Of a stretch of 64,000 bases of DNA, positions 6,955 through 57,706 are shown piece by piece (positions within the stretch are counted from its first letter, which is position 1; every line of letters begins with the position of its first letter). The notes under the pieces were generated by a model. It ran no database searches, was not told where the DNA came from, and saw nothing but the letters and a program-made list of their open reading frames with translations. Source of the stretch: an uncultured delta proteobacterium (lineage in GTDB: Bacteria; Myxococcota_A; UBA9160; SMWR01); assembly GCA_963832165.1 (NCBI GenBank), contig CAWHTE010000005.1:36850-100849 (forward strand), in the 5' to 3' direction. A program made the translations under genes and the position numbers.

Positions 6955-6964
6955 TCGGGTCGGA

Positions 6965-10400: not shown

Positions 10401-10565
10401 GCCCGGCCACTCGGTGAACACGATCACCTGGACGTCGGAGAGATCGGGAATCGCGTCGAGCGCCGTGCCGCGCAGCGACGCGACACCCCACGCGGTGGCT
10501 GCGACCACGGTCAGGATCGCGAGCGCGCGATTGCGCGCGCACCACTCGATCAGGCGCGCGATCAC
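7454..10565 (-). CDS. cusA: CusA/CzcA-family heavy-metal RND efflux permease (frameshifts near 9235, 8720, 8095; no own stop codon)
   Basis: LDAIPDLSDVQVIV, GPDATGVGWV, NIMSLGGIAVAIGAMVDAS, EFMPPLNEG, PIQTRTEMLATG, RIRPKLMT, MKRIAAPMVGG; start overlaps the adaptor stop (GTGA). Confidence 0.9.
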
Positions 10566-18060: not shown

Positions 18061-20217
<2,157 letters not shown>

Positions 20218-23110: not shown

Positions 23111-24295
23111 GTGCGCCGATCACGCGGCTGGACCCGATTCGCTGCCTGGCTCGTATTGATGCTGGGCGCGTGTGCGAGCCCGCCCGAGCAGACCGCACCC
23201 GAGAGCGTCGGCGACGCGGTCGAACCTGCGCCGCTGATCCCGTCGACGACGCAGGGAAAGGCCTGGGGCGTCTACCGCTACGCGCGCACGCGGGCGTACG
23301 ACGAATCGAAAGGCGTCCGGCACAACCCGGCAACTGACGACTATCGGATCGAGCTTCGGGCGCGCGCGGCGCTGGCCGGGTTCTGGCGCGACGAGCGACC
23401 GCCCGATACCGGGCCCGATCCGTATCTCGACCTGCTCGTCGCACTCGACGACCAGGGGCGCCTCCCGGAGCACGTGCTGGCATCCCTGCTCGAGCCGGGC
23501 TGGACGATCCCGGCCGAAGAGCTCGCGCAGATCGATCTCGCGGCGCTCGCCGAACTCGCGCGCGAGCCGATCCAGGCGCCGACCTTCGCCGTGCCGGAAC
23601 CGCGCTCGGGAGAGGTCCGATCCGTCATCCCGGGCGAGCAGCTCCCGGACCCGCTGGCGCTCCATCCAGACCGCGTTCCGTGCGCGGAGTCGCTGCCGAC
23701 GCTGCGCACGGCGATCCGCGCCTGGGAGCAGGAACGGGATGGGCTCGACGGCGCGCCCGCGGCCGCGGAGAACCGCGCTGAGCTCCTCCAACTGCTCTCG
23801 CTCGGCCGAGGCGAGCCTCCCTTCGCCACGCGCGGCATGACCTGGGTATCCCCGAAGCCTCATTGGCTGCTCTTCGTGGCGGGCTTCTGCGCGATCGAGC
23901 ACGAGGACTACGACGAGGCCGAGCAGTGGCTCGAGAGCGCGGTCGCCATGGCGCCGCACCGCGAGACCGCGCGCCTGGAGCTCGTGCACGCACTCGTCTC
24001 CCAGCGCAAGCTCGATCGCGCGGATGCAGTCGTCGGGGTCACGCTCTCCCGATCGCAGGACCGCTGCGAGCTGGCTCGCGCCTGGCGCAAGCGCGGCTAC
24101 ATCCGTTTCGAGCAGCGCCGGCTCTCCGAGGCCGAGGACGCCTATCACCGCTCGCTCGACTTCGATCCCGAAAGCGGAATCGCGCACTCGGAGCTCGACC
24201 TGCTGCAACGCGAGATCGCGAAGAACGGCGGCACGCCGAAGTGGTACGTGCCGCCCGCTTCCCATTCGCACGTCACGAAATGCCCGCCGTCGTAG
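23111..24295 (+). CDS. Putative lipoprotein with C-terminal TPR repeats
   Basis: LGAC lipobox; [37 protein letters not shown]; start uncertain. Confidence 0.7.
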
Positions 24296-24314
24296 GACGG
24301 GCCGCAGTCCGCCG

Positions 24315-27300
24315 CTACATCGATCTCCGATAGCTTCCGCCCACCTCGAACAGCGCATACGTGATCTGCTCGAGGCTCGCGACCTTCACCGTCTCCATGA
24401 GCTCGGCGAATACGTTCGCCGCCGCTCTCTGCGACCTCCTGGAGCCGGCGCAGTGCGATCGGCGCCGCCTCGGCGTGCCGGCGCTGGAACGCGCGCAGGT
24501 TGTCGAGCTGAACGCGCTTCTCGCCCTCGTCCGAGCGCATCAGCTCGCGCGTACGCGGCGCCTCCGCGTGCGGGTTCTCGAACGTGTTCACGCCGATGAT
24601 CGGCAGCGCCCCCGAATCCTTCTGCGACTCGTAATGGAGGCTCTCCTCCTGGATCTTGCTGCGCTGGTAGAGCGTCTCCATCGCGCCGAGCACGCCGCCG
24701 CGCTGGGACAGGCGCTCGAACTCCTCCAGCACCGCGTTCTCGACGGCCTCGGTGAGATAGTCGATCGCGTAGGCGCCCTGGAGCGGGTTCTCGTTGCGCG
24801 CGATCCCGAGCTCGCGGTTGATGATCAGCTGGATCGCCACCGCGCGCCGCACGCTCTCTTCCGTGGGCGTCGTCACGGCCTCGTCGTAGGCGTTGGTGTG
24901 CAGGCTGTTGCACTGGTCCTCGATCGCCGTGAGCGCCTGGAGCGTCGTGCGGATGTCGTTGAACGCCATCTCCTGTGCGTGCAGAGACCGACCCGACGTT
25001 TGGATGTGATACTTGAGCTTCTGGCTGCGTTCGGTCGCGCCGTACCGCTCGCGCAACGCGATCGCCCAGATCCGCCGCGCGACGCGCCCGATCACGCTGT
25101 ACTCCGCGTCGAGCCCGTTGCTGAAGAAGAACGAGAAGTTCGGCGCGAAGTCGTCCACGCTCATCCCGCGCGCGCGGTAGTACTCGCAGTAGGTGAATCC
25201 GTTCGCGAGCGTGAACGCGAGCTGGGTGATCGGGTTCGCTCCGGCCTCGGCGATGTGGTAGCCCGAGATCGAGACCGAGTAGAAGTTGTCGATCTCGTTC
25301 TCGATGAAGTACTGCTGGACGTCGCCCATGACCTTCAGCGAGAAATCCGTGGAGAAGATGCAGGTGTTCTGCGCCTGGTCCTCCTTGAGGATGTCGGCCT
25401 GCACGGTGCCGCGCACGCGGTGCAGCACGTCGGCGCGGATGCGCGCGTAGGTCTCGGCGTCGATGACCTCGTCGCCCGACACCCCCAGTAGCGCGAGCCC
25501 GAGCCCGTCGTGGCCCTCCGGGAGCGGACCCGCATAGCGCGGGAGGTCGCGCGCTGCGAGCTCGGCGCGGACCGCGTCGAGCCGTCCCGTCTCGCGCAGG
25601 TGCTGCTCGACGCCCTGATCGATCGCCGCGTTCAGGAAGAACGCGAGCACCGTGGGCGCGGGCCCGTTGATCGTCATCGAGACGGACGTGCTCGGCGCTG
25701 CGAGGTCGAAGCCGGAGTAGAGCTTCTTCGCGTCGTCCACCGTGCACACCGAGACACCCGAGTTGCCGACCTTGCCGAAGATGTCGGGGCGCGGCGCGGG
25801 ATCGCGACCGTAGAGCGTCACGGAGTCGAACGCGGTCGAGAGCCGCGCGGCGGGCATGCCGCGCGAGACGAGATGGAAGCGGCGGTTCGTGCGCTCGGGC
25901 GTGCCCTCCCCTGCGAACATGCGCGTCGGATCCTCGTCTTCGCGTTTGAACGGAAACACGCCCGCCGTGAACGGGAAGCTCCCGGGCAGGTTCTCGCGGC
26001 GCAGGAAGCGCGCGAGCTCCGCCCAGTCGCGCGTGCGCGGCAGCGCGACCTTGGGCAGCCGCGTGCGCGAGAGCGTCTCGACGTGGTTCTCCACGTCGAT
26101 CGCGCGGCCGCGCACCTCGTAGGACTGGGTATCGGCCGCATAGCGCGCGCGCACCTCGGGCCACTCGCGCAGCGCGTCGGCGAGCTCGGGACCCAGGTCG
26201 GCGAGCGCCGCGTCGCGCGCGGCGCGCAGCGCCGGCGCCTCGGCGCTCTGCGCGTCGAGTGCGGAGATCGAGCGGTCGAGCGCGGCCGCGTCCGCGGCCC
26301 GCTCGGCGAGCCGTTCGGTCTCCGCGTGCCACGCGCGCACGGTCTCGGCGATCTCCGCGAGATACCGCCCGCGCGCGGCCGGAATCAGCGCGCCGGGCAG
26401 CATCCTCGGCGGTCCGCACGGTGTCGGGCGGCCGGTCCAGACCCAGGTGCGGCGCGAGCGCCGCGAACAGCCGGTCGACGCCCGCGTCGTTCCACTGCCG
26501 CGCGATCGTCGGGAAGACGGGCACGTCGGCGTCGGCCAACTCGAACTTTGCGCGGTTGCGCTTCCACTGCTTGCGCACGTCCCGCAGCGCGTCGAGCGCG
26601 CCCTGGCGGTCGCTCTTGTTGAGCACCACCACGTCGGCGAGATCGAGCATGTCGATCTTCTCGAGCTGCGACGGCGCACCGTACTCGGGCGTCATCACAT
26701 AGACCGACGTGTCGACGAGATCGACGACCTCCGAATCGCTCTGCCCGATCCCGGCCGTCTCGACGATCACGAGGTCGAAGTCCGCGGCCTGGAGCACGCG
26801 CAGCGCATCGCCCACGGTCCGCGAGAGCGCGAGGTGGGCCCGCCGCGTCGCGACGCTGCGCACGAAGATGTGCGGGCCGTGGATCGCGTTCATGCGGATC
26901 CGGTCGCCGAGGAGCGCCCCGCCGGTGCGACGCCGCGTCGGATCCACGAGCAGCAGCGCCACGGTCGCATCGGGCCGCGCGCGGCGCAGCCGCAGCACGA
27001 GCTCGTCCACGACGCTCGACTTGCCCGCGCCGCCCGTACCCGTGAAGCCGATCACGGGCGCCGCGGTGCGCGAGCGTCTCGCGGCGAGCGCCGTGCGCCA
27101 GGCCGCCGCCGCGGGGTCGTCCTCGCCCGCGGTCTCGATCTGCGTGATCCACTGCGCGACGACGCCAGGCGCGCCTGGCGAGAGCGCCGACACGTCCGGC
27201 AGTGCGCGCGGCGGCGCCGCGCGGCACTCGTCCAGGAGTGAGCGGATCATGCCCTCGAGCCCGAGCGAGCGGCCCTCGGCCGGACCGAAGACCCGCGCCA

Positions 27301-35595: not shown

Positions 35596-37125
35596 CTAGA
35601 CCGGCGTGATGTTCCGCCGCTTGGACGGCGCCGGATCGCGCCGGCCCCACGCGGCGCGCAGCCGCGCCGCGAGCTCGTTGCGCAGCTCGCGGTGCGGCAC
35701 CACCGCATCGACGGCGAGCTCGCTCGCGAGCCGCTCGATGTCGATGTCCTCGCGGAACTCGCCGCGCAGCCGCTCCTCCTCGACCGCGCGCTCCGCCTCG
35801 GGCAGCGCCTCGAGCTTGTTGAAGTACACCGCGTTCACGGCCGCCTCGGGGCCCATCACCGCGATCATGGCGCCCGGCAGCGCGAGCGTGGCCTCGGGCT
35901 CGAAGCCGGGTCCGCTCATCGCGTAGAGCCCGGCGCCGTAGGCCTTGCGCACGATGATCGAGAAGCGCGGCACGGTCGCCGACGACACCGCGGAGATCAT
36001 CTTCGCGCCCGCGCGGATGATCCCCTGGCGCTCCACCTGCACGCCGACCATGAAGCCGGGCACGTCGGCGAGGAACACGATCGGCAGTCCGAACGCGTCG
36101 CAGAGCCAGATGAAGCGCGCGGCCTTGTCGGCCGAGTCGACGAACAGCACGCCGCCCTTCGCCTTGGGCTGGTTCGCGACGATCCCGACCGGGTGGCCGT
36201 CGATGCGCGCGAACGCCGTGATCAGCTCCTTCGCGAACAGCCGCTTGATCTCGAACAGACTGTCCGCGTCGATCAAGCGCTCGATCACGCGCAGCATGTC
36301 GAACGTCTTGTTCTCCTGCGCGGGGATCTGCGCCTCGAGATCGTCGCAGCTCGCGATCGGCGCGACGGCCTCGGTGATCGGCGGCAGGGCGTCGCAGCTC
36401 GAGGGCAGATACGAGAGATAGGCGCGCGCGACCGCGATCGCCTCGGGCTCGGTCGCGACGAGAATGTCGCCGCAGCCCGAGGTGGTGCAGTGCATGCGCG
36501 CACCGCCCATCTCCTCGAGCGTGGTGTCCTGCGCGATCACCTTGGCCACCATGCGCGGCGAGCCCAGGTACATGCTCGCGTTGCCCTCGACCATCACCAC
36601 GATGTCACAGAACGCGGGGATGTAGGCGCCACCCGCGGCCGAGGGCCCGAACAAGAGACACACCTGCGGCACGCGCCCCGACATCCGCACCTGGTTGTGG
36701 AAGATGCGCCCCGCGCCGCGCCGGCCCGGGAACATGTCGATCTGGTCGGTGATGCGCGCGCCCGCGGAATCCACGAGGTACACGAGCGGAACACCGGCGC
36801 GCTCGGCGCGCTCCTGCACGCGCAGGATCTTCTCGACCGTGCGCTTGCCCCACGAGCCCGCCTTCACGGTCGAGTCGTTCGCCATCACGCACACGGGCCG
36901 GCCGTCGATCCGGCCCGCCCCCGTCACCACGCCGTCCGCGGGCAGATCCCCCGCGAGGCTGTTCGCGAACGCGGCGTCCTCGACGAAAGAGTCGGCGTCG
37001 AGCAGCAGTGCGAGCCGCTCGCGGCAGAACAGCTTGCCCTCGGCGCGCGCCTTCTCGTGATACTTCGCGTCGCCGCCCCGGCGGATCTTCTCGAGCCGCT
37101 CGACCGCATCCTGCTCGCGCTTCAT
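35596..37125 (-). CDS. Acyl-CoA carboxylase carboxyltransferase (beta) subunit, methylcrotonyl-CoA carboxylase-like
   Basis: ADGVVTG, VDSAGARI, SAAGGAY, DVPGFMVG, RKAYGAGLYAM; coupled to HMG-CoA lyase. Confidence 0.9.
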   Translation of the reverse strand: MKREQDAVERLEKIRRGGDAKYHEKARAEGKLFCRERLALLLDADSFVEDAAFANSLAGDLPADGVVTGAGRIDGRPVCVMANDSTVKAGSWGKRTVEKILRVQERAERAGVPLVYLVDSAGARITDQIDMFPGRRGAGRIFHNQVRMSGRVPQVCLLFGPSAAGGAYIPAFCDIVVMVEGNASMYLGSPRMVAKVIAQDTTLEEMGGARMHCTTSGCGDILVATEPEAIAVARAYLSYLPSSCDALPPITEAVAPIASCDDLEAQIPAQENKTFDMLRVIERLIDADSLFEIKRLFAKELITAFARIDGHPVGIVANQPKAKGGVLFVDSADKAARFIWLCDAFGLPIVFLADVPGFMVGVQVERQGIIRAGAKMISAVSSATVPRFSIIVRKAYGAGLYAMSGPGFEPEATLALPGAMIAVMGPEAAVNAVYFNKLEALPEAERAVEEERLRGEFREDIDIERLASELAVDAVVPHRELRNELAARLRAAWGRRDPAPSKRRNITPV

Positions 37126-38054
37126 CGGGCTGCCTCGCGCTCGCGCGCGCCGCGCAGGGCCCGGTACACGCGCCCCGGCAGCGGTCGCCTGAGCACCTGG
37201 TTCTCGAGCCACGCGCTCGTGTCGACGAGCGCATCGAGCGACACCCCCGTGGCGACGCCGCTCCTCTCGAACAGATCCACGACGTCCTCCGTGGCGACAT
37301 TGCCCGACGCGCCCGGCGCATACGGGCAGCCGCCGAGCCCACCGAGCGAGCTGTCGAACGTGCGCACGCCGGCCTCGTAGCCCGCGGCGACGTTCGCGAG
37401 CGCGCGCCCGTAGGTGTCGTGCAGGTGCAGCGCGACGCCGTCGAGCGGCGCCACGCCCGCCACCGCAGCGACGAGCGCGCGCACACCGCTCGGCACGCCC
37501 ACGCCGATCGTGTCGCCGAGCGAGATCTCCGCCACACCCAGCGCGCGCAGCTTCTCCACGAGCGCGGTCACCGCGCCGACCGCCACCGCACCCTCGTACG
37601 GGCAGCCGCACACGGTCGAGACGTAGGCGCGCAGCCCGATTCCGTCCGCGAGCGCGCGCTCCGCGACGGGCCGGATCCGCTCGAGCTGGTCCGCGACGCT
37701 GCAGTTCAGGTTCTTGCGGTTGTGGGTCTCGCTCGCGGAGATGAACACCGCCGCCGTTTCGACGCCACCCGCGGCCCGAAAACGCGCGTAGCCCTGCTCG
37801 TTGGGCACCAGCGCGCTGAAGCGCACACCCGGGATCTCGGGCAGCGCCGCCGCGAGCGCGTCGCTGTCGGCGAGCTGCGGGATCCACTTGGGCGACACGA
37901 AGGAGGTCACCTCGATCCGCGCGAGGCCCGCGGCCGCGAGCCGGCGCACCAGCTCGAGCTTCGCCTCGGTCGGCACGGTCTCGGGCTCGTTCTGGAGCCC
38001 GTCGCGGGGACCTACTTCGTAGATGCAGACGCCGGGCGCAGCCACGCGGCTCAA
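37122..38054 (-). CDS. Hydroxymethylglutaryl-CoA lyase
   Basis: EVGPRDGLQNE, SFVSPKWIPQ, GCPYEG, HLHDTYG, GLGGCPYAPGASGN. Confidence 0.95.
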   Translation of the reverse strand: MSRVAAPGVCIYEVGPRDGLQNEPETVPTEAKLELVRRLAAAGLARIEVTSFVSPKWIPQLADSDALAAALPEIPGVRFSALVPNEQGYARFRAAGGVETAAVFISASETHNRKNLNCSVADQLERIRPVAERALADGIGLRAYVSTVCGCPYEGAVAVGAVTALVEKLRALGVAEISLGDTIGVGVPSGVRALVAAVAGVAPLDGVALHLHDTYGRALANVAAGYEAGVRTFDSSLGGLGGCPYAPGASGNVATEDVVDLFERSGVATGVSLDALVDTSAWLENQVLRRPLPGRVYRALRGAREREAAR

Positions 38055-43812: not shown

Positions 43813-45054
43813 TCAGCGTTCCGCCGCCGGCGCCGCCGCACCGGCCTCCACGAACGCGGCGTGCAGCGCGCGCACCGCGAGCTCGGTGTACTTCTCCTCG
43901 ATCACCACCGAGACCTTGATCTCGCTGGTCGAGATCAGCTGGATGTTGATGCCCTCGTCGGCGAGCACCTGGAACATGCGCGTCGCGACGCCCGCGTGGT
44001 CGCGCATGCCGAGACCCACGATCGACACCTTGGCGATCTCGGGGTCGCCGTCGACCGCCTGCGCGCCGATCTCGCGCCCGGTCTGGCGCGTGACCTCGAG
44101 CGAGCGCGCGTAGGAATCGCGCGGCACCGTGAAGGTCAGATCGGTGGCGCCGTCCTGCGAGAGGTTCTGGATGATCATGTCGACCACCACGCCGTCCTGC
44201 GCGAGCGGCGAGAACAGGCGCGCTGCGACGCCGGGCACGTCGCGCACCCCGCGCACGCGGATCTTGGCCTCGTTGCGGTTGTAGGTCACTCCGGAGACGA
44301 CCAGCTCTTCCATCACCTGCTCCTCCGGAACCACCCAGGTTCCCGTCGAATCGTTGAACGACGAGCGCACGTGCAGCGGCACGCCGAAGCGCATCGCGAA
44401 GCGCACCGAGCGGATCTGCAACACCTTCGCGCCCAGGCTCGCCATCTCCAGCATCTCGTCGTAGGAGATGCGCTCGAGCTTGCGCGCGCCCGGCACGATC
44501 CGCGGGTCGGCCGTGTACACGCCGTCGACGTCGGTGTAGATCTCGCACACGTCCGCGCGCAGAGCCGCTGCGACCGCCACGGCCGACGTGTCCGATCCGC
44601 CGCGCCCGAGCGTGGTGACGTTGCCGGCCTCGTCGATCCCCTGGAATCCCGCGAGCACGGCCACCTGGCCGCGCTCGAGCGCGTCGCGCAGCACGGCGGT
44701 GTCGATGCTCTCGATGCGCGCGCGCGTGTGGGCGGTATCGGTGCGCATGCCCATCTGGGCGCCCGTGAACGAGCGCGCGGGCTGGCCGAGGCGCTGGATC
44801 GCCATGGCCGTGAGCGCGATCGTCACCTGCTCGCCGGTCGAGACGATCTGGTCGTACTCGCGCGGGTCCGCGTCTTCGCCGCCGAGGTCGCGCGCGAGCG
44901 CCACGAGCCGGTCGGTCTGCCCGCTCATCGCCGACACCACGACGGCCACGCGGTTCCCGGCCTTCACGGTCTCCACGACGCGGCGCGCGACGTTCCGGAT
45001 CCGATCCGGGTCGCCGACGCTCGTGCCGCCGTACTTCTGGACGATCAGAGCCAC
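43813..45054 (-). CDS. lysC: Aspartate kinase
   Basis: [42 protein letters not shown] domains, STSEIKVS. Confidence 0.96.
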
Positions 45055-45198
45055 GGGATGACTCCCATGCGTGCCGGGACCGGTGTTTCGGGTGGAGGAG
45101 GCGACGCTCGAGCGGGGCCCGTAGGTTCGCGCAGGATCCCGAGCCAGGCCACACGCAGGGTGGGCAACGACGAGAGCTTTGCCCACCCTACCGCCCAG

Positions 45199-47298
45199 AT
45201 GACGCCCCGGATCTGGCAGAGCGCCCTGGGCCACGTCGCCGCCGCCGTCGCCGCAGCGCTGCTGCTAGTCGCCGTAGGCCAGCCCCTGTTCACGGACGAC
45301 GCGTGGTGGCACCTCGCACTGGGCCGTGCGTTTGGCGAGCACGGGCCGTGGCTTTCACAGGATCCGCTGCTGATCGCACCGCAGAGTCCGCCCTCGGCCT
45401 CGGCCTGGCTGTTCGATCTCGCGCTGCACGGAGCTCACGCGCTCGCGGGCTTTGCGGGACTGCGTGCACTGCACGCGGCGGCGGTGGCCGCCGTGCTCGG
45501 TCTGGTCTGGTCGCTCCTGCGGCGCGCGAGCGGATCGGCGCTCGCCGCGAGCGCGGGCACCGTGATCTTCATCGCGCTGTCGACCTATCGCCTGGCCCAG
45601 CTGCGCCCCGATCTGGTCACGATCGCCTTCTCCCTTGGGCTCTACCGGGCACTGATCGACACCGAGCGACCGCCGTCACTCGCGCGCATCGCTTCGTGCG
45701 CCGCGTTGTTCGCGCTGTGGGCGAACGCGCACGCGGCGTTTCCGGTCGGCCTGCTCTTGCTGGGCGCCGCCGCGTTCGCCGCGGGCGTCAGCGCGATCGC
45801 AACGGGCGAGGAGTCCGAGAAGGCTCGCGCGCGCCGGCTCGGCGCGGCCTGGTTGGCCGGGCTCGCGGCGACGCTGTGCAACCCGATCGGCGTCCGCGCC
45901 TATGCGGCCTGGTTCGCGGCCGGGACGAGCACGCCATCGCTCACACGAGTGCTCGACGAGTGGTCCCCCGTGAATCCGTTGGCGTGGCCCCAGCCGACGC
46001 TCCCGCCCACCCCCGTCGCGTGGTTCCTCGTCTGGGGTCTGCTCGTGGGTACCGCGCTGCTCGTGCCGCGCGCGATCGCATCGCTGCGCGCAGGAGCGCG
46101 CGCGGATCGCATCGACCCGGCCGCCGTGGGTGCGGCCGCGATCTCGCTCGCGCTGATGCTCGCCGCGTCGCGCTTCCTCTGGCTCGGCGTGTTCCCGCTG
46201 CTGCTCCTCGCACGCGCGCTGCGCGGCACCGCGCGCGGAAACTGGGTACTCGCGCTCGCGCCCGCGCTGTGTACGGCGCTCTTCCTGCGCTGGGGCGACT
46301 GGCCGCTCGTAACCCGCGCGCTGCCGCGAACCCTCGAGGGTTATGCAGCGCCCTACGCGGCCGGAAAGTACTACCCGGAGGCGGTCTGGCTCGCGCGCGA
46401 TGCGGGTCTCGAGGGCGGACTCTATTGCGACTACTTCCAGGCCGGCTTCGCGGGCTACTGGCTCGCGCCGCGCATCCGCACGCTCACCAACGGCACGCTC
46501 AACGTCCCCACCGCGACCTTGAGCGCAGCCGCCGCGATCGGAATCCGCCGCGGCGTCGAGCCCGGCGAGACCTTCGCTGCGCTGCTCGATCGCTCCGGCA
46601 TCGATCTGTTCCTGGGCATCCGTCTGCCCGAGACCGGCAATCCCTACCGGCCCTGGGTATCCACCACGGCGCACCTCGAGGACACGCCGGGCTGGATCCC
46701 CGTGTTCCGGAACCTCGGCGCCGCGCTCTATCTGCGCAGCAATGAGCGCAACCGCGAGAACCTCGCCCGCATCGCGCAGTACTACGCCTCGCAGTACGTG
46801 CCGTTCGATCCCGCGCGCGGCTTCGAGCCGCTCGCGGCGATCCGCGCCGCCCCGGACTGGGCGCGCGACCACGGTCTCATGCCCGAGGGCTTCGGTGCCC
46901 TCGATCACGTCGCGCGCACGGGAGCGGGTGAGAGCGCTGCGCTCGCGCGCGATCGCATCGCCGCGATCTACGCCTCGCTCGGAGCCTATGCCGAGGCATC
47001 GGCGCTCGACCGCGAGATCCTGCGCGAGCGGCCGCAGGCCGTGCGCGCGCGTCGCCGCCTCGCGTGGAACCTGCTCCATCTGGAGCGCTACGCCGAAGCC
47101 CAGGAAGCGGCGGCGGGCCTAGCGGATCGCCCCAAGGACGATGCGCTCTCGCACGCGATCGCGCGCGCGGCGCACAACCTCGGCGCGTTCGAGCCCGACG
47201 AGGCGCGTGCGCGGCTGGCGCTCCTGCCCGCGTTCGAACGCTCGGAGGTGCCGTGGCTCCTCGCGGGCGTGCCGCCCGCGCAGGCGCGCACGCGATAG
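45199..47298 (+). CDS. Polytopic membrane protein (GT-C-like) with C-terminal TPR-like region
   Basis: [35 protein letters not shown]; many TM segments. Confidence 0.65.
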
Positions 47299-47340: not shown

Positions 47341-48093
47341 GTGACCGACACCCGCGTGCAATTACGCGCTGGGATCGTGGGCCGCGCCGCGCTGCTGGCC
47401 GCCGCGATCGCGCTGATCTCCGGATGCGCCGCCCCGCGCAACCACCTGTACCGCAGGAGCGCCGCGGACTTCGAGCGCGCGATCGTGCTGCCGCTGAACC
47501 TCGTGTCGAAGATGCCCGGCGAGCTGATCGACTCGGCCCGGTACGTCGACCGGGCGCTGCTCGACTACCTCGCCCAGCACGGAAAGGCCGTCGAGGCGAT
47601 CGGATTCTCCGACGCGAGCGCCGCCTGGCGCGCGAGCGAGGCGGAGTGCCGCTCGCAGGGCAAGAAGGACTGCAATCGCTTCGCGGGCGTCGCGCGCTTC
47701 ATGGCACAGCATCTGCGCCGCGATCGCGACTTTCAGATCCTGATCATTCCCTATCTATTCGTGCGCAGCTCGCGGATGGCATCGGGCCTCTCGCGCTGGC
47801 ACGGCGTCGAGCGAACCGTCGAGCGCGTGGGCAAGGGTTATGCCGCCGACACACCTCCGCGGCAGCTGCGCGGCGACATCCGCGCGGCCTCGCTCAAGGT
47901 GTTCGCGTTCTCCGCCGAGGGCGAGCGCGTGTTCGAAGGCGTCGGCGGGCTCGAGCTCGTCGACCGCCTGTACGCGCCCGAGGGCTACACGGACTACGAC
48001 GTCGAGCTCCGCGACGACCTGTTCCAGCACCCCGAGCCGCTCCGCGAGGGCGTCGCTCTCGCGCTCGAACATCTCGTGCCCCAGGGCTCGTAG
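47341..48093 (+). CDS. Hypothetical lipoprotein
   Basis: ISGC lipobox after a hydrophobic stretch; typical codon usage. Confidence 0.65.
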   Translation: MTDTRVQLRAGIVGRAALLAAAIALISGCAAPRNHLYRRSAADFERAIVLPLNLVSKMPGELIDSARYVDRALLDYLAQHGKAVEAIGFSDASAAWRASEAECRSQGKKDCNRFAGVARFMAQHLRRDRDFQILIIPYLFVRSSRMASGLSRWHGVERTVERVGKGYAADTPPRQLRGDIRAASLKVFAFSAEGERVFEGVGGLELVDRLYAPEGYTDYDVELRDDLFQHPEPLREGVALALEHLVPQGS

Positions 48094-48097
48094 CGGC

Positions 48098-48589
48098 TCA
48101 CCCCTCGACCATCGGTTGAAGCTCCGCGCGCCACCGCGCGAGCAGTGCGGCGGCGTTCGGTCCGCGCGCTTCCATCTCGAGCTCGCGTTCACTCTCCGCG
48201 CCGCCGCGCGCGAGGCGGATCTCGAGCCGATCGGCCGGCCACGCGCCCGGCGCGCGCTCGGGCCATTCCGCCACCACGAGCGCACCCGGCGCGAGCCAGT
48301 CCAGAAGGCCCGCCGACTCGAGCTCGGCCTCGCTCCCGATCCGGTAGCAGTCGACGTGCACGAGTGCGCGGCCGCTCGCGAGCGGGATCTCCTGAGCCAG
48401 CACGAAGGTCGGGCTCTGCACCCGATCCGGATCGATACCGAGCCCGGACGCGAGCCCCTTCACGAAGCGCGTCTTGCCGGCGCCGAGCGGACCCGAGAGC
48501 AACACGATCGCGCCCGCCGCGTCGATCGCGCGCGCGAGCGCGGCCGCGAGCCGCTCTGTGGCCTCAGGGCTCGGGGAATGCAGCTGCAA
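48098..48589 (-). CDS. tsaE: tRNA threonylcarbamoyladenosine biosynthesis ATPase
   Basis: GPLGAGKT, SPTF, HVDCYR, EWPE; follows nnr. Confidence 0.93.
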   Translation of the reverse strand: MQLHSPSPEATERLAAALARAIDAAGAIVLLSGPLGAGKTRFVKGLASGLGIDPDRVQSPTFVLAQEIPLASGRALVHVDCYRIGSEAELESAGLLDWLAPGALVVAEWPERAPGAWPADRLEIRLARGGAESERELEMEARGPNAAALLARWRAELQPMVEG

Positions 48590-50159
48590 GCTCGCGCTCG
48601 AACGGCGCGGGTACGGGCGTGTCGCGCAGCGCCGTGATCACGGCGGGCAGCGCGGTCAGGAGCTCGTGGGCGAGCAGACCCGTGTCGCCACGGCGCGCCG
48701 CGATGCGATCGCCCGCGGCACCGTGCAGGAACGCGCCGAGCGCACCCGCGCGCAGCGCGTCGACACCCTGCGCGAGCAGCCCCGTGATGATGCCGAGCAA
48801 CACGTCGCCGGTGCCGCCGCTCGCGAGCGCGGGACCGCCGGTCGGGTTCACGATCAGCTCGCCGTCGGGCGACGCCACCGCGGTGCCTGCCCCCTTGAGC
48901 ACGACCACGGCACCGCTGCGCGCGGCCAGCTCACGCGCGGCGCTCGCGCGATCCGCGTTCACCTGGCCCGCCTTCACGCCGAGCACCACGGCCGCTTCTC
49001 CCGGATGCGGCGTGAGCACGGTCGGCGCGCGCCGGCTGCGCAGCAGATCGAGCTCGCCCGCGAAAGCCACGACGCCGTCGGCATCCACCGCGAGCGGCAG
49101 ATCGAGCCGCTTCGCGAGCGCACGCACGAGACCCGTGGTTTCGCGCGCGCGGCCGATCCCGGGTCCGAGACCCACCGCATCGCGCGTGGCCGCGAGCGCG
49201 ACGATCCCCTCCTCGGCGGCCGCCGCGAAGCAACGCGCGCCGGTGTCGGGCAGCGGCGCGGTCATCGCCTCGGTGACCTTCGCCTCGAGGATGTCGTTGA
49301 GCCCGGCCGGACACGCGAGCGTCACGAGGCCCGCGCCGACGCGCCCCGCCCCTTCCGCGCACAGCGCCGCCGCACCGGTCTTGCCCTCGGAGCCGGCGAC
49401 GAGCAGCGCGTGGCCGAAGGTTCCCTTGTGCGCGTCCGCGGGTCGCGCGGGCAGCGCCGCAGCCGCGCCCGCGCGCGTCCACAGCGTCGCGTCGAGCCGC
49501 AGGTCGGGGGCCGCATCGGCAATGCCGATCCGCGCCACGAAGATGCGTCCCGCGAGTCCGCGCCCCGGCTCGAACGCGAGGCCGAGCTTGGGCAGCCCGA
49601 TCGTCACCGTGACGTCTGCGGCCACGGCGGCGCCTAGCACCTGTCCCGTATCCGCGGACAGCCCGCTCGGCAGATCCACCGCGACCACGCGGATCGCATC
49701 CGGCCGCGCACTGCGCGCCGCGTTGATCCGCTGCACGCTCGCGCGCGCGTCGCCCGAGAGCGCGCGCGCCAGACCCGTGCCGAACAGCGCGTCGACGATC
49801 ACGCCCGCTGCCGGGGCGCGCCAGCGCTTGCCTTCGAGCGGTACGCCCGCCGCACGCGCGCGCGCGAGCTGCGGGGCGGCGTCGCCGGACAGACGCTCGC
49901 TGAGCAACGCCGCGCGCACGGGCACACCGAGCGCGTGCAGGTGGCGCGCCACGACGAGTCCATCGCCGCCGTTGTTCCCGGGCCCGCACACGACACACAC
50001 GCTTTCGCCGGGCGAGAGGCGCGCGAGCACGGCCTGCACCACGGCGCGCCCCGCGCTCTCCATGAGCACGTCACCGGGTACGCCGAGCTCGTCGATCGTG
50101 TGCCGGTCGAGCGCCCGCATCTGTGCGGCGCTGACGAGCGGCCACACAGCACGCGTCAC
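48564..50159 (-). CDS. nnr: Bifunctional NAD(P)H-hydrate epimerase/dehydratase
   Basis: LMESAG, GPGNNGGDG, DALFGTG, DLPSG, HKGTFG, LTPHPGE, GGTGDVL. Confidence 0.95.
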   Translation of the reverse strand: MTRAVWPLVSAAQMRALDRHTIDELGVPGDVLMESAGRAVVQAVLARLSPGESVCVVCGPGNNGGDGLVVARHLHALGVPVRAALLSERLSGDAAPQLARARAAGVPLEGKRWRAPAAGVIVDALFGTGLARALSGDARASVQRINAARSARPDAIRVVAVDLPSGLSADTGQVLGAAVAADVTVTIGLPKLGLAFEPGRGLAGRIFVARIGIADAAPDLRLDATLWTRAGAAAALPARPADAHKGTFGHALLVAGSEGKTGAAALCAEGAGRVGAGLVTLACPAGLNDILEAKVTEAMTAPLPDTGARCFAAAAEEGIVALAATRDAVGLGPGIGRARETTGLVRALAKRLDLPLAVDADGVVAFAGELDLLRSRRAPTVLTPHPGEAAVVLGVKAGQVNADRASAARELAARSGAVVVLKGAGTAVASPDGELIVNPTGGPALASGGTGDVLLGIITGLLAQGVDALRAGALGAFLHGAAGDRIAARRGDTGLLAHELLTALPAVITALRDTPVPAPFERELAAAFPEP

Positions 50160-50866
50160 AGGAGCAGCTCGCGCAGATCGCGCAGCGCGCGGTCGAGCCC
50201 GACCAGGAGCGAGCGCGTGACTGCGGCGCGGCCCACCGCGACCCGCTCCGCGGCGGGCGCCGCCTGGATCACCTCGGAGAGCGTGCGGTAGCCGAGCCCC
50301 CCTGCGAGCCCGAGCCCGATCTGGAGCTTCGAGGCGAGCCGCGCGGCGTCGCCGAGCTGCTTGAGCGCGGCACGTCGCTCCACGGGCGGCAGATCCACGA
50401 TCCCGCCCGTGTAGAGCTCGATCTGGTTGAACCCGTGCGCGTGTGCCGTCTTCACCGCGTCGAGCGTAGGCGATACGAGCGCGGCCACGGCGATTCCCGC
50501 ATCCGCGAACGTGCGCAGCATGCTCCCGAGCCCGCCGGCTCCGGTGCGGAAGTCGAGCGGGGTCGAGGCGCTGCGCCCCTCGCGCCGATCGGAGGCCAGG
50601 AGCACCGAGTTGGGCCGCACGTCGAGCGCCACGCGCATGAGCGAGTCGAGCGGCGGCATGCGCAGCTCGAGCCTGCGCGCCGCGCGCCGCGTGTCGTGCA
50701 GGTCCTCCTCGCGCACGGGCTTGAGGTCCGGGTTCACGCCGAGCCTTATGGCGTCGACCCCCGCGAGCTCCGCGAGCGTCGATGCCGCGGGCAGGTCGAC
50801 ATCGGTTGCGGCCATCGCATCGCGCAGGCTCGGCAGTGCGTCGAGCTCGAGCGTGAGACTGCGCAT
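50156..50866 (-). CDS. Pyridoxine 5'-phosphate synthase (PdxJ) homolog with degenerate active site
   Basis: 236 aa; LAELAGVDAI, AGIAV, IELYTG, ALLVGLDRAL-type C-terminus (SLLVGLDRALRD); conserved position between glmM and nnr; catalytic motifs replaced. Confidence 0.8.
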   Translation of the reverse strand: MRSLTLELDALPSLRDAMAATDVDLPAASTLAELAGVDAIRLGVNPDLKPVREEDLHDTRRAARRLELRMPPLDSLMRVALDVRPNSVLLASDRREGRSASTPLDFRTGAGGLGSMLRTFADAGIAVAALVSPTLDAVKTAHAHGFNQIELYTGGIVDLPPVERRAALKQLGDAARLASKLQIGLGLAGGLGYRTLSEVIQAAPAAERVAVGRAAVTRSLLVGLDRALRDLRELLL

Positions 50867-52233
50867 CAGGCCGATCCCGCGAGGCTGCGTTGGAGCGCCG
50901 CGGCGAGCTCCGCCGCATACCCGCGCACGCGCGTCTCGTCGTCGCCCTCCACCATCACGCGCGCCTTGGGCTCGGTGCCGCTGTAGCGCACGAGCACGCG
51001 ACCATCGGTGCCGAGCTCCTGCTCCACCGCGCGCAGCCGCTTCTGGAACTCGGGCAGCTCCTCGACCGGGCGCTTGTGCGCGACGGTCACGTTCACGAGC
51101 ACCTGCGGCACGCGCTCGAAGCCGGCCGCGAGCTGGGAGAGCGGCTGTCCGGTGCGGCGCATGATCGCGAGCACCTGGAGCGCCGTGAGCAGGCCGTCGC
51201 CCGTCGTGTTGTGATCGAGCAGGACGACGTGGCCGGACTGCTCGCCGCCCAGGTTGTACCCACCCGCGCGCATCGCCTCCACCACGTAGCGATCGCCGAC
51301 CGCCGTGCGGACGAGGCCGACTCCCTCGCGCGCAAGCGCGCGCTCGAGGCCGAGGTTGCTCATCACGGTCGACACCACCGATCCACCGCGCAGCACACCG
51401 CGCGCACGCGCGTCGCGCGCGAGCAGCGCGAGCAGCGCGTCGCCGTCCACGGTCTGTCCGCGCTCGTCGAGCATCACGCAGCGGTCGGCGTCGCCGTCGA
51501 CCGCGACGCCGACGTCGCCGCGCACCTCGTGCAGCTTCGCGCTCGTCCGCTCCGGGAACAGCGCGCCGCACGCATCGTTGATGTTGCGCCCGTTCGGATC
51601 GACGCCGATCGCGACCACCTCTGCACCGAGCTCGCGAAACACGGTCGGCCCGACCTTGTAGGACGCGCCGTGCGCGCAATCGAGCACGATCCGCACGCCC
51701 TCGAGCGACAGCTCGCGCGGAAAGCTCTTCTTGAGGAAGACGACGTAACGCCCGGCGACGTCGTCGATTCTTCGCGCAGCCCCGATCGCGTCGGCGTCTG
51801 CGCGGTGCTTTGCGAGCGCGCCCGAGTGGATCAGCTGCTCCATGTGCAGCTCGAGCTCGTCGGGCAGCTTGAACCCGTCGCGCGAGAAGAACTTGATGCC
51901 GTTGTCCTGGTAGCTGTTGTGGCTCGCGGAGATCATCACGCCCGCGTCGCAGCGCATGTCCGCGGTCAGGAACGCCATGCCCGGCGTGGGCATCGGGCCC
52001 ACCTGGAGCACGTCGACGCCCATCGAGCAGATTCCGGCCGCCATCGCGTCTTCGAACAGGTAGCCCGAAAGGCGCGTGTCCTTGCCGATGATGATCTGGG
52101 TGCGTTCGCTGCGCCGGGTCGCGAGCACGTGCGCCACGGCCTGGCCGAGCGCCAGCGCCATTTCCGCCGTCATCGGGTGCACGTTCGCGCGCCCGCGCAC
52201 GCCATCCGTGCCGAACAGCCGCTCCTTGCTCAT
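50866..52233 (-). CDS. glmM: Phosphoglucosamine mutase
   Basis: LFGTDGVRG, GKDTRLSG, ISASHN, DGDADR, GGEQSGH, RYSGTEP. Confidence 0.97.
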   Translation of the reverse strand: MSKERLFGTDGVRGRANVHPMTAEMALALGQAVAHVLATRRSERTQIIIGKDTRLSGYLFEDAMAAGICSMGVDVLQVGPMPTPGMAFLTADMRCDAGVMISASHNSYQDNGIKFFSRDGFKLPDELELHMEQLIHSGALAKHRADADAIGAARRIDDVAGRYVVFLKKSFPRELSLEGVRIVLDCAHGASYKVGPTVFRELGAEVVAIGVDPNGRNINDACGALFPERTSAKLHEVRGDVGVAVDGDADRCVMLDERGQTVDGDALLALLARDARARGVLRGGSVVSTVMSNLGLERALAREGVGLVRTAVGDRYVVEAMRAGGYNLGGEQSGHVVLLDHNTTGDGLLTALQVLAIMRRTGQPLSQLAAGFERVPQVLVNVTVAHKRPVEELPEFQKRLRAVEQELGTDGRVLVRYSGTEPKARVMVEGDDETRVRGYAAELAAALQRSLAGSA

Positions 52234-52892
52234 CGCTGGCCCCGCTTTCCCCGTGCGGGGATCTCATCGACCTGCACGCGCACCTTCACGGGCCGTGCCT
52301 CGTCCATCCACACGTGATCGGGCAGCGCGAGCCGCACCTCCCGATCGAGTGACTCCCGGACGCCCCGGATCTCGAGCGGCTCCGTGATCGCCTCGCGCAT
52401 CGACGTCACCTCGCGCCGGTCACCCGTGAGCCAGACGTAGGGCGGGTCTACTTCCACCCAGGCCACGTTGTACCCCTCTGCGGGGTCCCCAACGATATCG
52501 GCCCGCACGCGGATCGACTTGCGCCCTCGCGGCGCGAACTTGATCTCGATGCTCGCGGGCGAGCGGGACACGATCCGGGCCCCGTTGGGCAGCTGCTCCT
52601 CGATCCGCCCCTGATCGATCTCGTAGACCGCCTCGCCGCGCTGCGCGCCCGACACGTCGATCCGGTACTCCATCTTCCCGGGCCCCACGTCGCGCAGCGC
52701 CGCGCGGCTCCCGAGCACGCGGATGTTCACGGCGCGCGCGCTCTGGTCTACGAGCACGAGGTCTTCGGACACGCCATCGAACACGATCGGAATGTCGACG
52801 CCGCGCTCGATGTCCGAGCTGCCGTGGGCCATGCCCCAGAGCACCATCGCGATCGCCCACGCGAGCAGGAGCGTTCCGATGCGCAGCGGCAT
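52230..52892 (-). CDS. CdaR/YbbR-like diadenylate cyclase regulator
   Basis: N-terminal TM and two beta-rich YbbR-like repeats; between cdaA and glmM. Confidence 0.8.
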   Translation of the reverse strand: MPLRIGTLLLAWAIAMVLWGMAHGSSDIERGVDIPIVFDGVSEDLVLVDQSARAVNIRVLGSRAALRDVGPGKMEYRIDVSGAQRGEAVYEIDQGRIEEQLPNGARIVSRSPASIEIKFAPRGRKSIRVRADIVGDPAEGYNVAWVEVDPPYVWLTGDRREVTSMREAITEPLEIRGVRESLDREVRLALPDHVWMDEARPVKVRVQVDEIPARGKRGQR

Positions 52893-52902
52893 GGCGCCTG
52901 AC

Positions 52903-53805
52903 CTAACCCGCCGCCCGCAGCGAAGAGTCCTGCGCGGGCGGCGCCGCCTCGTCCGTCACGGCCGGCAGCGGCTCGATCGCGAGCTCGGTGTCGGGGATGT
53001 CGCGCAGATCGCGGCGCTCGCCGCTCAGGATGTCGCGCAGCACGGCGCGCAGGCGCGGCGCGTCGAGCCCCTGGACGAGCGCGCCGGTGAGCGCCACCGA
53101 CATGCCGCCCGTCTCCTCGGACACGACCACCACGACCGCGTCGGTCTCCTCCGAGAGCCCGACCGCCGCGCGATGGCGCGTGCCGACGCCGTCCGGCAGA
53201 TCCTCGCGCATCGTGAGCGGCAGGATGCAGCCCGCGTACGACACGCGGCCGTTCTGGAGCAACACGGCGCCGTCGTGCAGCGGCGAGTACGGAATGAATA
53301 CCGAGATGAGCAGGTCCTTGCTGACCGCCGCGTCGAGCTGCGTGCCCGTCTCGATCTGGTCGACGAGCTGGATCTCGCGCTCGAGCACGATCAGCGCGCC
53401 GACCCGCTTGCGCGACAGCTCCTGACACGCGCGCACGACCTCCTCGAGCATCTGTGTCTCGCGCTGCAGCACCGCGGACGGGAAGAAGCCACGTCCCACG
53501 CGCGCGAGCGCGCGGCGGATGTCGTGCTGGAACAGCACGATCACGATCAACACGCCGTACTGCACGAAGTTCTCGAGCACGGTGCGCAGCGTGACGAGCT
53601 GGAAGATCTCGGAGGCCACGCTCGCCGCGTACAGCACGAGCAGGCCCAGCAGGATCTGGAACGCGCGCGTGCCGCGGATCAGGAGCAGGAGCCAGTAGAT
53701 CCCGATCGTGACCAGCAGAATGTCGATCACGTCGCGCACGGGATCGAAGTTCGCGCCGAAGTACTCGAGCAGGTTGCGCAGCAGGTTCCAGACCGTCTCG
53801 ATCAT
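52903..53805 (-). CDS. cdaA: Membrane diadenylate cyclase
   Basis: Three TM, GALIVLER, PLHDGAV, GTRHRAAVGLSE, VVSEETG. Confidence 0.95.
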   Translation of the reverse strand: MIETVWNLLRNLLEYFGANFDPVRDVIDILLVTIGIYWLLLLIRGTRAFQILLGLLVLYAASVASEIFQLVTLRTVLENFVQYGVLIVIVLFQHDIRRALARVGRGFFPSAVLQRETQMLEEVVRACQELSRKRVGALIVLEREIQLVDQIETGTQLDAAVSKDLLISVFIPYSPLHDGAVLLQNGRVSYAGCILPLTMREDLPDGVGTRHRAAVGLSEETDAVVVVVSEETGGMSVALTGALVQGLDAPRLRAVLRDILSGERRDLRDIPDTELAIEPLPAVTDEAAPPAQDSSLRAAG

Positions 53806-54672
53806 GCGGCGTCTCCGCGCCCAGCCTCATGGACTTGCCGGAGCGCGCGCGCGACCGCGCACGCGCGCACGGCGCCCGCGACGTCGTGCACTCGCACCGC
53901 GTCGGCACCCTCGTAGACCGCGATCGCACACGCGGCGTGGCTCGCGGTGTCGCGCGCCGCGGCCACGTCCCCCGTGATCCGGCCCAGGAACGACTTGCGC
54001 GACGGTCCCACCAGCACCGGCAGGTCGCCGCCCACCGCAGCGCGCAGTGCGCCGATTCCGACCAGGAGTGCGAGGTTGTCCTCGGGCCGCTTGGCGAAGC
54101 CGATGCCGGGGTCGATCACGAGCGCGCGGTCGGCGACTCCGGCCGCGCGCGCGACCGCGAGCGATTCGCGCAGCTCGGCCGCGACCTCGTCGATCACCGC
54201 GTCGTAATGGGGTGCCGCCTGCATCGTCTCGGGCGTGCCGCGCGAATGGCCGACCACGAGCGTCGCGCCCGCGCGCGCCACCACGCCCGCGATCGCCGGA
54301 TCGAAGCGCAATCCCGACACGTCGTTGACGATGTGCGCGCCAGCCGCGACCGCGTCCTCTGCAACGCGCGCCTTGCGCGTGTCGATCGAGAGCGGCACCG
54401 CGAAGCGCTTCGCGAACGCCTCGATCAGCGGCACCGTGCGCGCGCACTCGAGTTCCGCGGGCACCTCGGCCGCGCCCGGGCCGCGTCGATTCGCCGCCCA
54501 CGTCGAGCACGTCCGCACCGTCGCGGATCAGCGCCGCGGCCAGATCGATCGCGCGCGGGAGATCGAGCTCGCCCGCGCTGGCTACGAATCGGCCGCCGTC
54601 CGAGAACGAGTCCGGCGTGGCGTTCAGTACGCCGATCACCACCGTTCTCGCGCGGCGGAAGATCGCCGACAT
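53802..54672 (-). CDS. folP: Dihydropteroate synthase (frameshift near 54482)
   Basis: GVLNATPDSFSDGG, DVGGESTRPG, SIDT, NDVSG, DPGIGFAK, SRKSF, RVHDV. Confidence 0.94.
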
Positions 54673-54684
54673 GCGGCGCCCTCC

Positions 54685-56607
<1,923 letters not shown>

Positions 56608-56671: not shown

Positions 56672-57706
56672 CTATGTCCGCGGGGTCGGGGAATCTCCAC
56701 CCGTGGGCCCGAGCCGGAACCCCGCGCGATCGCAGCGAAGTTCGAGCCCGCCGGGCAGCTCGATGTGCCGCCCCGGCGATGCATCGCGCAGGAAGCGCTC
56801 GATCCGCTCGAGGTGTACCCGCTCGACGTGCCGTGCGGAGCCCGCGCGTGCAAGCGCCTCGCGGGCCAGCCGCCTCGACAGCGCCTCGGGCAGCGCACCC
56901 CAGTCCTTCGCGTCGATCCGCAGCCACGCTCCCTCGCTCGTGAAGCGCGCGCCCGCCTCCCGCTCGACCCACGCGCGGATCCACTCCGTATCCCTGCGTT
57001 GCGCTTCGGCAAGATCTGCAATCGCCCTGAGCCATTGCGGGTTCAAATCGCGCGCGAACGAGGGCAGCCAGCTGCGCAGCCGATTGCGCGCGTAATCGGG
57101 CGAGGCATTCGAGCGATCCTCGCGCCACGCGAGGCGCCGGGCCGCCGCATAGTGCTCGAGCTCGGCGCGCGAGAGGCGCAGGAGCGGCCGCACGATCCGG
57201 CCGTCGGGCGAGCGATCGGGGATTCCGCCGAGCCCATCCGGCCCCGTGCCGCGGAACAGGCGCAGCAGCACGGTCTCGGCCTGGTCGTCCGCGTGGTGTG
57301 CCGTCGCGATCCGCTGTGCGCCGATCTGCGCCGCCATGCGCTCGAGCGCGGCGTAGCGCAGCGTGCGCGCGGCCTCCTGGAGCGTCGGTCGGTTCCGACT
57401 CGAGACTCCCTCTCGCAACGCGCCCGGCACCACCCGCTCGACCGCAAACGGCGCGCCCAACTCTTGCGCGAGCGCCGCGACCGCCGCCTCGTCGGCGTCC
57501 GCGTCCGCGCCGCGCAAACCGTGGTGCACGTGAGCGATCGCGAGCGCGAACCCGCCCCGCGCCGCGATCGTTGCGAGCGCGCACGCCAACACGGTCGAGT
57601 CGAGTCCGCCCGACACCGCTGCGAGCACCGTGTGGCCGCGCAGATCGAGGCGCACCGCCGCCCGCTCGAGCTCGCGCTCGACACGGCGCACGGGGTCTCG
57701 CCTCAC
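56672..57706 (-). CDS. tilS: tRNA(Ile)-lysidine synthetase
   Basis: [42 protein letters not shown]. Confidence 0.95.

Follow-up and report, generated by a model that had tools for sequence, protein, structure and literature searches.

We analyzed a 64,000-nucleotide stretch of DNA from an uncultured delta proteobacterium (the window) and, within it, a minus-strand gene at 50156-50866 that is related to the pyridoxine 5'-phosphate (PNP) synthase gene pdxJ and is given here the working name pdxJL. The reading that we favor, with some reserve, is that pdxJL takes the place of pdxJ, as its positional orthologue, in a clade of uncultured Myxococcota, that its active site has been lost, and that it may be kept by selection as a non-enzymatic binding or regulatory barrel. 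We hold with considerable confidence that the protein is not a PNP synthase and that it is under selection. The chances that its new role lies in binding or regulation rather than in new catalysis appear about even.

Homology to PdxJ and replacement of the active site

pdxJL is a full-length homologue of PdxJ. Translation of the window gave an open reading frame (ORF) of 236 codons without an internal stop, and the protein matched Pfam family PF03740 with 123.4 bits (cut-off 24.5; E = 9.9e-36) over residues 4-234, or 231 of its 236 residues. In phmmer searches, eight distinct solved PdxJ sequences matched the protein with E values from 1e-19 to 3e-7. An AlphaFold model built from 43 family sequences had a predicted local distance difference test score (pLDDT) of 90.7 and a predicted template modeling score (pTM) of 0.89, with low confidence only in loop 95-110. 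The best Foldseek matches of the model were all PdxJ (twelve chains, template modeling score [TM] 0.88-0.92, identity 22-26%), and the next fold class, the ribulose-phosphate epimerases, reached a TM of at most 0.66. The ESM Atlas returned PdxJ-domain clusters only, with Myxococcota the commonest source. pdxJL thus has the same (beta/alpha)8 fold as canonical PdxJ (E. coli b2564; PDB 1HO1, 1M5W, 3GK0, 3F4N and 6RG0) and is colinear with E. coli PdxJ over the full length at 25% identity.

The equivalog models gave a different result. Six NCBIfam models of PdxJ (TIGR00559 and NF003623-NF003627), which stand for pyridoxine 5'-phosphate synthase (EC 2.6.99.2), scored pdxJL at 71.7-102.2 bits against cut-offs of 190-347, or about half, and pdxJL failed the cut-off of all six. 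Since these scores are far under the cut-offs and the active-site residues are replaced, pdxJL is probably not a PdxJ by function.

E. coli PdxJ (b2564, from NC_000913) served as the reference for the active site, and the residue numbers in substitutions are those of the E. coli protein. In pdxJL, the motif LGVNIDH is replaced by LTLELDA, TVHLREDRRHI by RLGVNPDLKPV, NLEM by ELRM, LVPE..TTEGG by LASD..SASTP, AGHGL by LAGGL, NIGH by AVGR and IEIHTG by IELYTG. A preliminary description of this DNA had listed the first six of these changes by eye and had counted IELxTG among what remains, and all seven were recovered in BLASTP against E. coli PdxJ, in phmmer against the solved structures and in a MAFFT alignment. 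It had also held that the catalytic residues His45, Glu72 and His193 and the binding residues Asn9, His12, Arg20, Arg47 and His52 were lost. Each of these residues is indeed replaced in the alignments.

His45, Glu72 and His193, the catalytic residues of PdxJ, correspond to Gly43, Arg69 and Gly189 in pdxJL. Nine further residues presumably bind substrate or phosphate in PdxJ, and pdxJL carries Asn9>Glu, His12>Ala, Arg20>Met, Arg47>Asn, Arg51>Lys, His52>Pro, Thr102>Ser, Thr103>Ala and His216>Arg at these positions, together with Gly106>Pro. At the substrate and phosphate positions and in loop 4, all residues are replaced in pdxJL and only the equivalents of Gly194 and Gly215 are retained. A measure independent of the assumed roles was provided by 38 canonical representatives from an exhaustive search (908 matches at E <= 1e-3), 37-38 of which have His45, Glu72 and His193. 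At least 90% conservation was found at 44 positions among these 38 proteins. pdxJL retains 16 of the 44, mostly Gly, Pro, Ala and Leu together with Asp11, Arg17, Asp49, Asp57 and Glu153, and is changed at the other 28.

These counts bear on the idea that pdxJL is still a PNP synthase that works through migrated or alternative catalytic residues, which we regard as very improbable. The retained fold, Asp11, Glu153 and the Gly194/Gly215 equivalents, as well as the database name pyridoxine 5'-phosphate synthase, would fit such an activity, but the 28 changed positions include the three presumed catalytic residues and invariant Arg, His and Thr residues, the scores are far under all six equivalog cut-offs, and relatives either lack loop 4 or vary in it. 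We infer that pdxJL would be unable to make PNP.

Conservation across the clade and remodeling of the pocket

pdxJL is a trait of a whole clade of at least 70 species-level genomes and not an oddity of one genome. When GTDB was scanned with each species represented by a single genome, 78 loci (L numbers below) were found, of which 70 had a pdxJL-type gene. Most of the 70 are labeled Myxococcota, Myxococcales or Deltaproteobacteria, one is labeled Gammaproteobacteria, one Proteobacteria, and 12 Spirochaetales or Spirochaetaceae. The last group comprises L002, L004, L015, L024, L030, L031, L036, L044, L047, L050, L060 and L068, and its labels look doubtful, since the operon proteins are 50-90% identical to those of Myxococcota-labeled metagenome-assembled genomes (MAGs).

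None of the 70 loci has His45, Glu72 or His193. The substitutions are shared widely: N70>E, H216>R and H193>G each in 69 loci, T43>R in 64, H52>P in 61, G106>P in 59 and E72>R in 58. A word-indexed search gave a similar picture in 120 clusters with 63-87% identity, all of which contain the PdxJ domain. His45 is replaced by Gly in 116 and Glu72 by Arg in 119 of them, and His193>Gly, His52>Pro and His216>Arg occur in all 120. The named clusters, from Myxococcota, Deltaproteobacteria and Myxococcales MAGs, are all called pyridoxine 5'-phosphate synthase.

The ORF is 227-245 amino acids long in 63 of the 70 loci. Among the seven exceptions, L065 is cut by a contig end, and L051, L070 and L072 are from assemblies with fragmented neighbors. 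The remaining three, L066, L067 and L068 (208-212 amino acids), form a naturally shortened subgroup in which the stretches that align with loops 2 and 4 of PdxJ are missing and the rest is conserved; the ratio of nonsynonymous to synonymous substitution rates (dN/dS) between L066 and L067 was 0.09. The clade reaches down to about 42% identity with the gene retained.

The pairwise dN/dS of pdxJL, calculated by the Nei-Gojobori method (NG86) for 25 close pairs in the clade, had a median of 0.172 and a range of 0.028-0.388. The medians of the neighboring genes were 0.115 for cdaA, 0.118 for glmM, 0.181 for nnr, 0.185 for ybbR and 0.247 for tsaE. Over the same 60 genomes, mean column identity was 61% for pdxJL and 77% for GlmM. 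Because the dN/dS medians are similar, pdxJL appears to be constrained like its housekeeping neighbors, while it evolves faster than glmM. These results support the view that pdxJL is kept by purifying selection, and the expectations that relatives share the substitutions at dN/dS below 1 and that the orthologues do not decay neutrally were borne out by the shared replacements, the intact ORFs and the conserved slot. pdxJL thus combines the operational marks of a pseudoenzyme, namely homology to an enzyme, loss of conserved catalytic motifs and purifying selection. Pseudoenzymes in general, in the available text of PMC5106787 and PMC10211241, likewise retain an enzyme fold with catalytic motifs lost.

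We consider it extremely improbable that pdxJL is a decaying, functionless relic that is read through inside an essential operon. The lower column identity relative to GlmM and the three shortened ORFs are what a relic might display, but intact ORFs of constant length in 63 of 70 species, a dN/dS median equal to that of nnr and under that of tsaE, new residues fixed in 69 of 70 loci, and the persistence of the gene throughout the clade all argue against decay.

The pattern of constraint was then read from 60 orthologues, in which 68 positions are at least 85% conserved. These comprise 34 positions in common with canonical PdxJ (the scaffold), eight switched positions (T43R, R50L, H52P, N70E, E72R, G106P, H193G and H216R) and 26 family-specific positions. 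Many family-specific positions hold charged residues, in the D158-L159-P160 loop, in helix 161-180 (E163, R164, D173, R176 and K180) and in the C-terminal helix (D225, R226 and D230). The strongest conservation was found in helices 171-181 and 221-232 and in segment 31-41. R213 does not vary among the 60 genomes aligned and, like E67, occurs in 69 of 70 loci; G212 is invariant, and Asp9 and Glu150 have been carried over from PdxJ. The oppositely charged R41 and E67 lie on neighboring strands. At the level of the alignment, the former pocket is shown to be refixed to new residues and not merely decayed.

The positions N9, H12, R20, R47, R51, T102 and T103, which we assume to belong to the second-substrate site and the closing loop 4 of PdxJ, are variable or deleted across the clade, and loop 4 has low pLDDT in the pdxJL model and is deleted in the shortened subgroup. 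Since these positions vary while the Gly and Arg residues of beta7 and beta8 are fixed, the condensation machinery appears to be gone and part of the catalytic face appears to be under new, strong constraint. This pattern fits a predicted site that binds an anionic ligand, probably a phosphorylated one; it would fit equally a subunit with a purely structural part to play, filled by its own network of salt bridges, or a new enzyme.

The last of these, a neofunctionalized enzyme in which the remodeled pocket (Arg41, Glu67, Arg69, Asp9, Glu150 and Arg213 with the Gly cradle) acts on another phosphorylated substrate, seems unlikely to us, although it has several results on its side. The reaction could possibly be tied to amino-sugar, B6 or NAD(P)HX metabolism. 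New residues are fixed at eight positions of the former active site or barrel, E67, R213 and G212 are nearly or fully invariant, and Asp9 and Glu150 are retained. Outside the clade, 15 of 86 representatives have Arg or Lys in place of Glu72, and 13 of these also lack His193, which may point to a second stable arrangement of the barrel. Against such an enzyme stand the variable second-substrate and loop-4 positions, the loss of loop 4 in the 208-212-amino-acid proteins, the lack of universal conservation of Arg69, the absence of any conserved Lys or His remaining in the pocket as judged by homology, and a genomic context that yields no candidate reaction.

The operon and relatives in other lineages

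Searches with the window proteins (tblastn) found the gene order tilS-ftsH-folP-cdaA-ybbR-glmM-X-(acpS)-nnr-tsaE-lysC, in which X is the pdxJL-type gene, in relatives wherever the contig was long enough. The genes of this block in the window are listed in Table 1.

Table 1. Position and identification of pdxJL and the conserved block around it in the window
Gene	Position	Strand	Basis or remarks
tilS-like PP-loop gene, opens the conserved block	56672..57706	-	Pfam ATP_bind_3; synteny
ftsH	54685..56607	-	Pfam
folP, two frames	53802..54672	-	N-terminal part in ORF 53827-54672, remainder in ORF 53802-54518
cdaA (diadenylate cyclase)	52903..53805	-	Pfam DAC + CdaA_N
ybbR/cdaR-like	52230..52892	-	Pfam YbbR
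glmM (phosphoglucosamine mutase), 455 aa	50866..52233	-	Four PGM/PMM domains, Pfam
pdxJL, PdxJ TIM barrel	50156..50866	-	236 aa; His45>Gly43, Glu72>Arg69, His193>Gly189, His216>Arg213
nnr (NAD(P)HX epimerase/dehydratase, YjeF)	48564..50159	-	Pfam YjeF_N + Carb_kinase
tsaE	48098..48589	-	Pfam TsaE
lysC (aspartokinase), closes the conserved block in most relatives	43813..45054	-	Pfam AA_kinase + ACT; synteny

The window has a G+C content of about 71%, and pdxJL has the G+C pattern over codon positions that is typical of real genes here. The stop codon of glmM and the ATG of pdxJL have one base in common (TGATG). The preliminary description had portrayed an uninterrupted ORF coupled to glmM by TGATG and to nnr by GTGA. 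The intact ORF and the junction with glmM stand, whereas GTGA is only one of two equal options for nnr, whose start may be the GTG overlapping the pdxJL TGA or the GTG 12 nucleotides downstream, at 50147. The reported absence of acpS after pdxJL was upheld for the whole window, in which no acpS was found by tblastn with five AcpS proteins from related loci (E <= 1e-3) or by Pfam on the called ORFs.

Among the related loci L007-L068, acpS directly follows the pdxJL-type gene in 23; it is missing from that place in the others, as it is in the window and its nearest relatives, so that acpS appears to have left the slot within the clade. Canonical loci of the same phylum have a comparable order: L069, a Myxococcales MAG whose canonical PdxJ is 57% identical to that of E. 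coli, has pdxJ-acpS-nnr-tsaE, and L078, a Polyangiaceae MAG, has pdxJ-acpS and then nnr. pdxJL is therefore the positional orthologue of pdxJ and not an inserted extra copy, in agreement with the earlier placement of the gene in the usual pdxJ slot. As for canonical pdxJ, the gene is associated with nnr, which adjoins it in the window, and with acpS in the 23 relatives. That pdxJ and acpS cluster with yjeF/nnr has been described for several phyla in the available text of PMC5938422, which also gives evidence for an unexplained vitamin B6 link of the epimerase half of Nnr.

L069, L077 (Myxococcales) and L078 differ from pdxJL in several respects. Their PdxJ proteins have the canonical residue at each of the 18 positions tabulated, show 53-57% identity to E. 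coli PdxJ and 31-33% to pdxJL, group with the canonical proteins in the tree, and are encoded by genes not adjacent to glmM. L069 has acpS-nnr-tsaE downstream as in the clade, and its protein shares with pdxJL the C-terminal helix motif VGLDRAxRDL, in the form VGLDRAVRDL. pdxJL is like canonical PdxJ in having equivalents of Asp11, Arg17, Glu153, Gly194 and Gly215 and in its pdxJ-(acpS)-nnr neighborhood; it is set apart from canonical PdxJ by the translational link to glmM, by the replaced key residues and by equivalog scores at half the cut-offs.

One explanation for a PdxJ-like protein without catalytic residues is that it joins, as an inactive subunit, a canonical PdxJ from another locus of the genome in a hetero-octamer that tunes B6 synthesis. 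PdxJ is octameric and has a mobile loop at 95-105, in the available text of PMC10471632 and PMC6253932, and both the conservation maximum in helices 171-181 and 221-232 and segment 31-41 and the motif shared with the L069 protein are consistent with such an assembly. On the other hand, pdxJL occupies the ancestral pdxJ slot itself and is not an added copy, and no second PdxJ-like match was found within 10 kb in any of the loci, the rest of the genomes being outside the search. We consider a hetero-octamer improbable. In addition, E. coli PdxA, PdxH and PdxY queries had no match in the window or within 10 kb around the 78 loci, a result that bears on these regions alone.

Two trees, of 108 and 123 PdxJ-like proteins, set the clade off from canonical PdxJ with a Shimodaira-Hasegawa-like approximate likelihood ratio test (SH-aLRT) value of 98-100 and a stem of 0.63 changes per site. 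The 108-row alignment consisted of 102 full-length listed representatives, five added close family members and E. coli PdxJ. In this list, which was ranked by likeness to a non-canonical query and is therefore a biased sample and not a measure of natural frequencies, 38 proteins are canonical, 15 are partial, and 55 have lost almost all key residues. Zixibacteria was the sole named organism in a look-up of ten non-canonical representatives.

Three loci outside Myxococcota have a PdxJ-like gene after glmM: L075 and L076 from NC10 (Methylomirabilota) and L074 from an Acidobacteriota MAG. All three have the order ftsH-cdaA-glmM-X-(acpS-nnr-tsaE) as in the clade. The NC10 proteins resemble pdxJL in T43>R, in an LRMPP motif with E72>R, and in H193>G, but they keep His12 and His216, lack E67, P50 and the D-L-P motif, and have glmM gaps of 115-123 nucleotides. 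The Acidobacteriota protein keeps His45, His193 and Arg residues, and its site is changed only in part, for example by E72>V. In quick trees, the NC10 proteins and the Myxococcota clade did not group together; a tree uniting the two was 73 log-likelihood units above the free quick tree and was not rejected by the approximately unbiased test (p-AU 0.92). The non-canonical lineages may have had one or several origins, between which we make no choice, and long branches are involved.

Several fusion proteins were also considered as hints to function. P0151 (a PdxJ fragment with YjeF_N and Carb_kinase) and P0197 and P0245 (GlmM and PdxJ fragments) contain partial domains only and were set aside; we read them as frameshift or gene-call artifacts over neighboring genes. 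The YbeY-PdxJ fusions P0200 and P0262 have high-scoring PdxJ domains and no bearing on this clade.

Other features of the window were recorded as well. folP is broken near 54475-54485: the part up to GGESTRPG lies in one ORF, and the FolP of L006 matches both parts in different frames. A genuine frameshift or an indel introduced by the assembly in a G+C-rich run would account for the break. A gene for an AcrB/CusA-type efflux pump (6894-10568, minus strand) adjoins HlyD/CusB-like and outer-membrane factor genes and is split among three or more reading frames, with positions 7-432, 441-611 and 830-1019 of Pfam ACR_tran in three separate ORFs. Together, the two breaks suggest assembly indel errors or several broken genes. 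Two methylmalonyl-CoA mutase-type genes (18061-20217 and 24145-26403, both minus strand), one with a B12-binding domain by Pfam, occur with a MeaB GTPase gene (17005-18003, minus strand), and a carboxyl transferase gene and an HMGL-like gene lie at 35596-38054. Between lysC and tsaE, two ORFs on the opposite strand (45160-47298, 712 amino acids, and 47341-48093, 250 amino acids) had good scores; they matched no significant Pfam family, a sub-threshold tetratricopeptide repeat (TPR) being the sole match.

Proposed role and consequences for annotation

In the reading that we favor, pdxJL would no longer condense 1-deoxy-D-xylulose 5-phosphate (DXP) with aminoacetone phosphate and would be a pseudoenzyme that serves as a binding or regulatory barrel. 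The Gly-rich phosphate cradle of beta7 and beta8 (G190 and G212) would be retained together with Arg213, R41-E67, R69, D9 and E150 would form a new charged core of the barrel, and the conserved helices 171-181 and 221-232 would be kept. The extra helices of PdxJ presumably mediate octamer contacts. pdxJL would probably be co-produced with GlmM, as the stop and start codons overlap or nearly touch, and may act on, or sense something for, the glmM/nnr part of the operon.

The gap between glmM and the pdxJL-type gene is -4 to +17 nucleotides in 64 of 67 related loci, and this tight, conserved junction makes GlmM the first candidate for a partner. GlmM binds and inhibits CdaA in Firmicutes, according to the available text of 10.1101/2021.05.26.445777 and PMC6368335. 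A prediction of the GlmM-pdxJL complex from 60-row alignments of each protein scored 0.00 in two runs, with a mark of 0.32, and speaks neither for nor against binding. No particular partner or ligand is supported by the results, and the roles suggested in the preliminary description, as a scaffold, regulator, ligand sensor or inactive subunit in a hetero-oligomer, stay hypotheses.

Several points weigh against a non-enzymatic barrel or soften its support. At R69, 11 of the 70 loci have C, A, G, H, K or S instead, which argues that R69 is not essential to the function of the family. The fixed R41, E67, R69, R213, D9 and E150 would suit a new enzyme, a binding site or an internal salt-bridge plug equally well. 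The dN/dS values are pairwise NG86 estimates only, at dS of 0.2-1.3 in GC3-rich genes, and the start codons in the loci were picked nearest to the expected position, which biases the gaps toward short values. Finally, the frame-broken folP and AcrB-like genes indicate an imperfect assembly of the window; the pdxJL ORF is nonetheless intact here and in relatives.

A broader proposal, which we offer as a long shot, is that the glmM-linked non-canonical PdxJ-like proteins of Myxococcota, NC10 and perhaps more phyla are one old and so far unrecognized family, a phospho-metabolite sensor or regulatory subunit that couples GlmM and CdaA (cell-wall precursors and cyclic di-AMP) with a B6-linked moonlighting activity of Nnr. 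PdxS/T also occurs in Acidobacteria and some delta-proteobacteria, in the available text of PMC9997740, which fits the idea of lineages that changed their B6 route. If the broader proposal were true, canonical PdxJ might itself have a further role outside catalysis, and this would account for the persistence of the gene after a change of the B6 route.

Searches of the literature with terms for PdxJ-like proteins, paralogs, glmM/cdaA, pseudoenzymes and residues found no description of a non-catalytic PdxJ. Beyond the first observation in a single gene, the new elements are the clade-wide nature of the trait, the refixed pocket, and the similar non-canonical PdxJ-like proteins in other phyla. 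About 60% of the proteins compared (70 of the 108 rows) are non-canonical in this query-biased sample, which suggests unexplored diversity in a family that has been regarded as having one function. A TIM-barrel pseudoenzyme fixed in a core operon of about 70 species would offer an entry to roles of PdxJ beyond catalysis and to the pdxJ-acpS-nnr linkage.

The immediate practical consequence concerns the annotation of the B6 pathway. pdxJ serves as the marker of the DXP-dependent route to B6 and was described as "well annotated" in a 2023 survey, as far as its available text goes (PMC9997740). Since pdxJ is used as the signature of the pathway and the named members of the clade are all labeled pyridoxine 5'-phosphate synthase, B6 prototrophy is probably predicted too often in these Myxococcota, in NC10 and in at least one Zixibacteria cluster.

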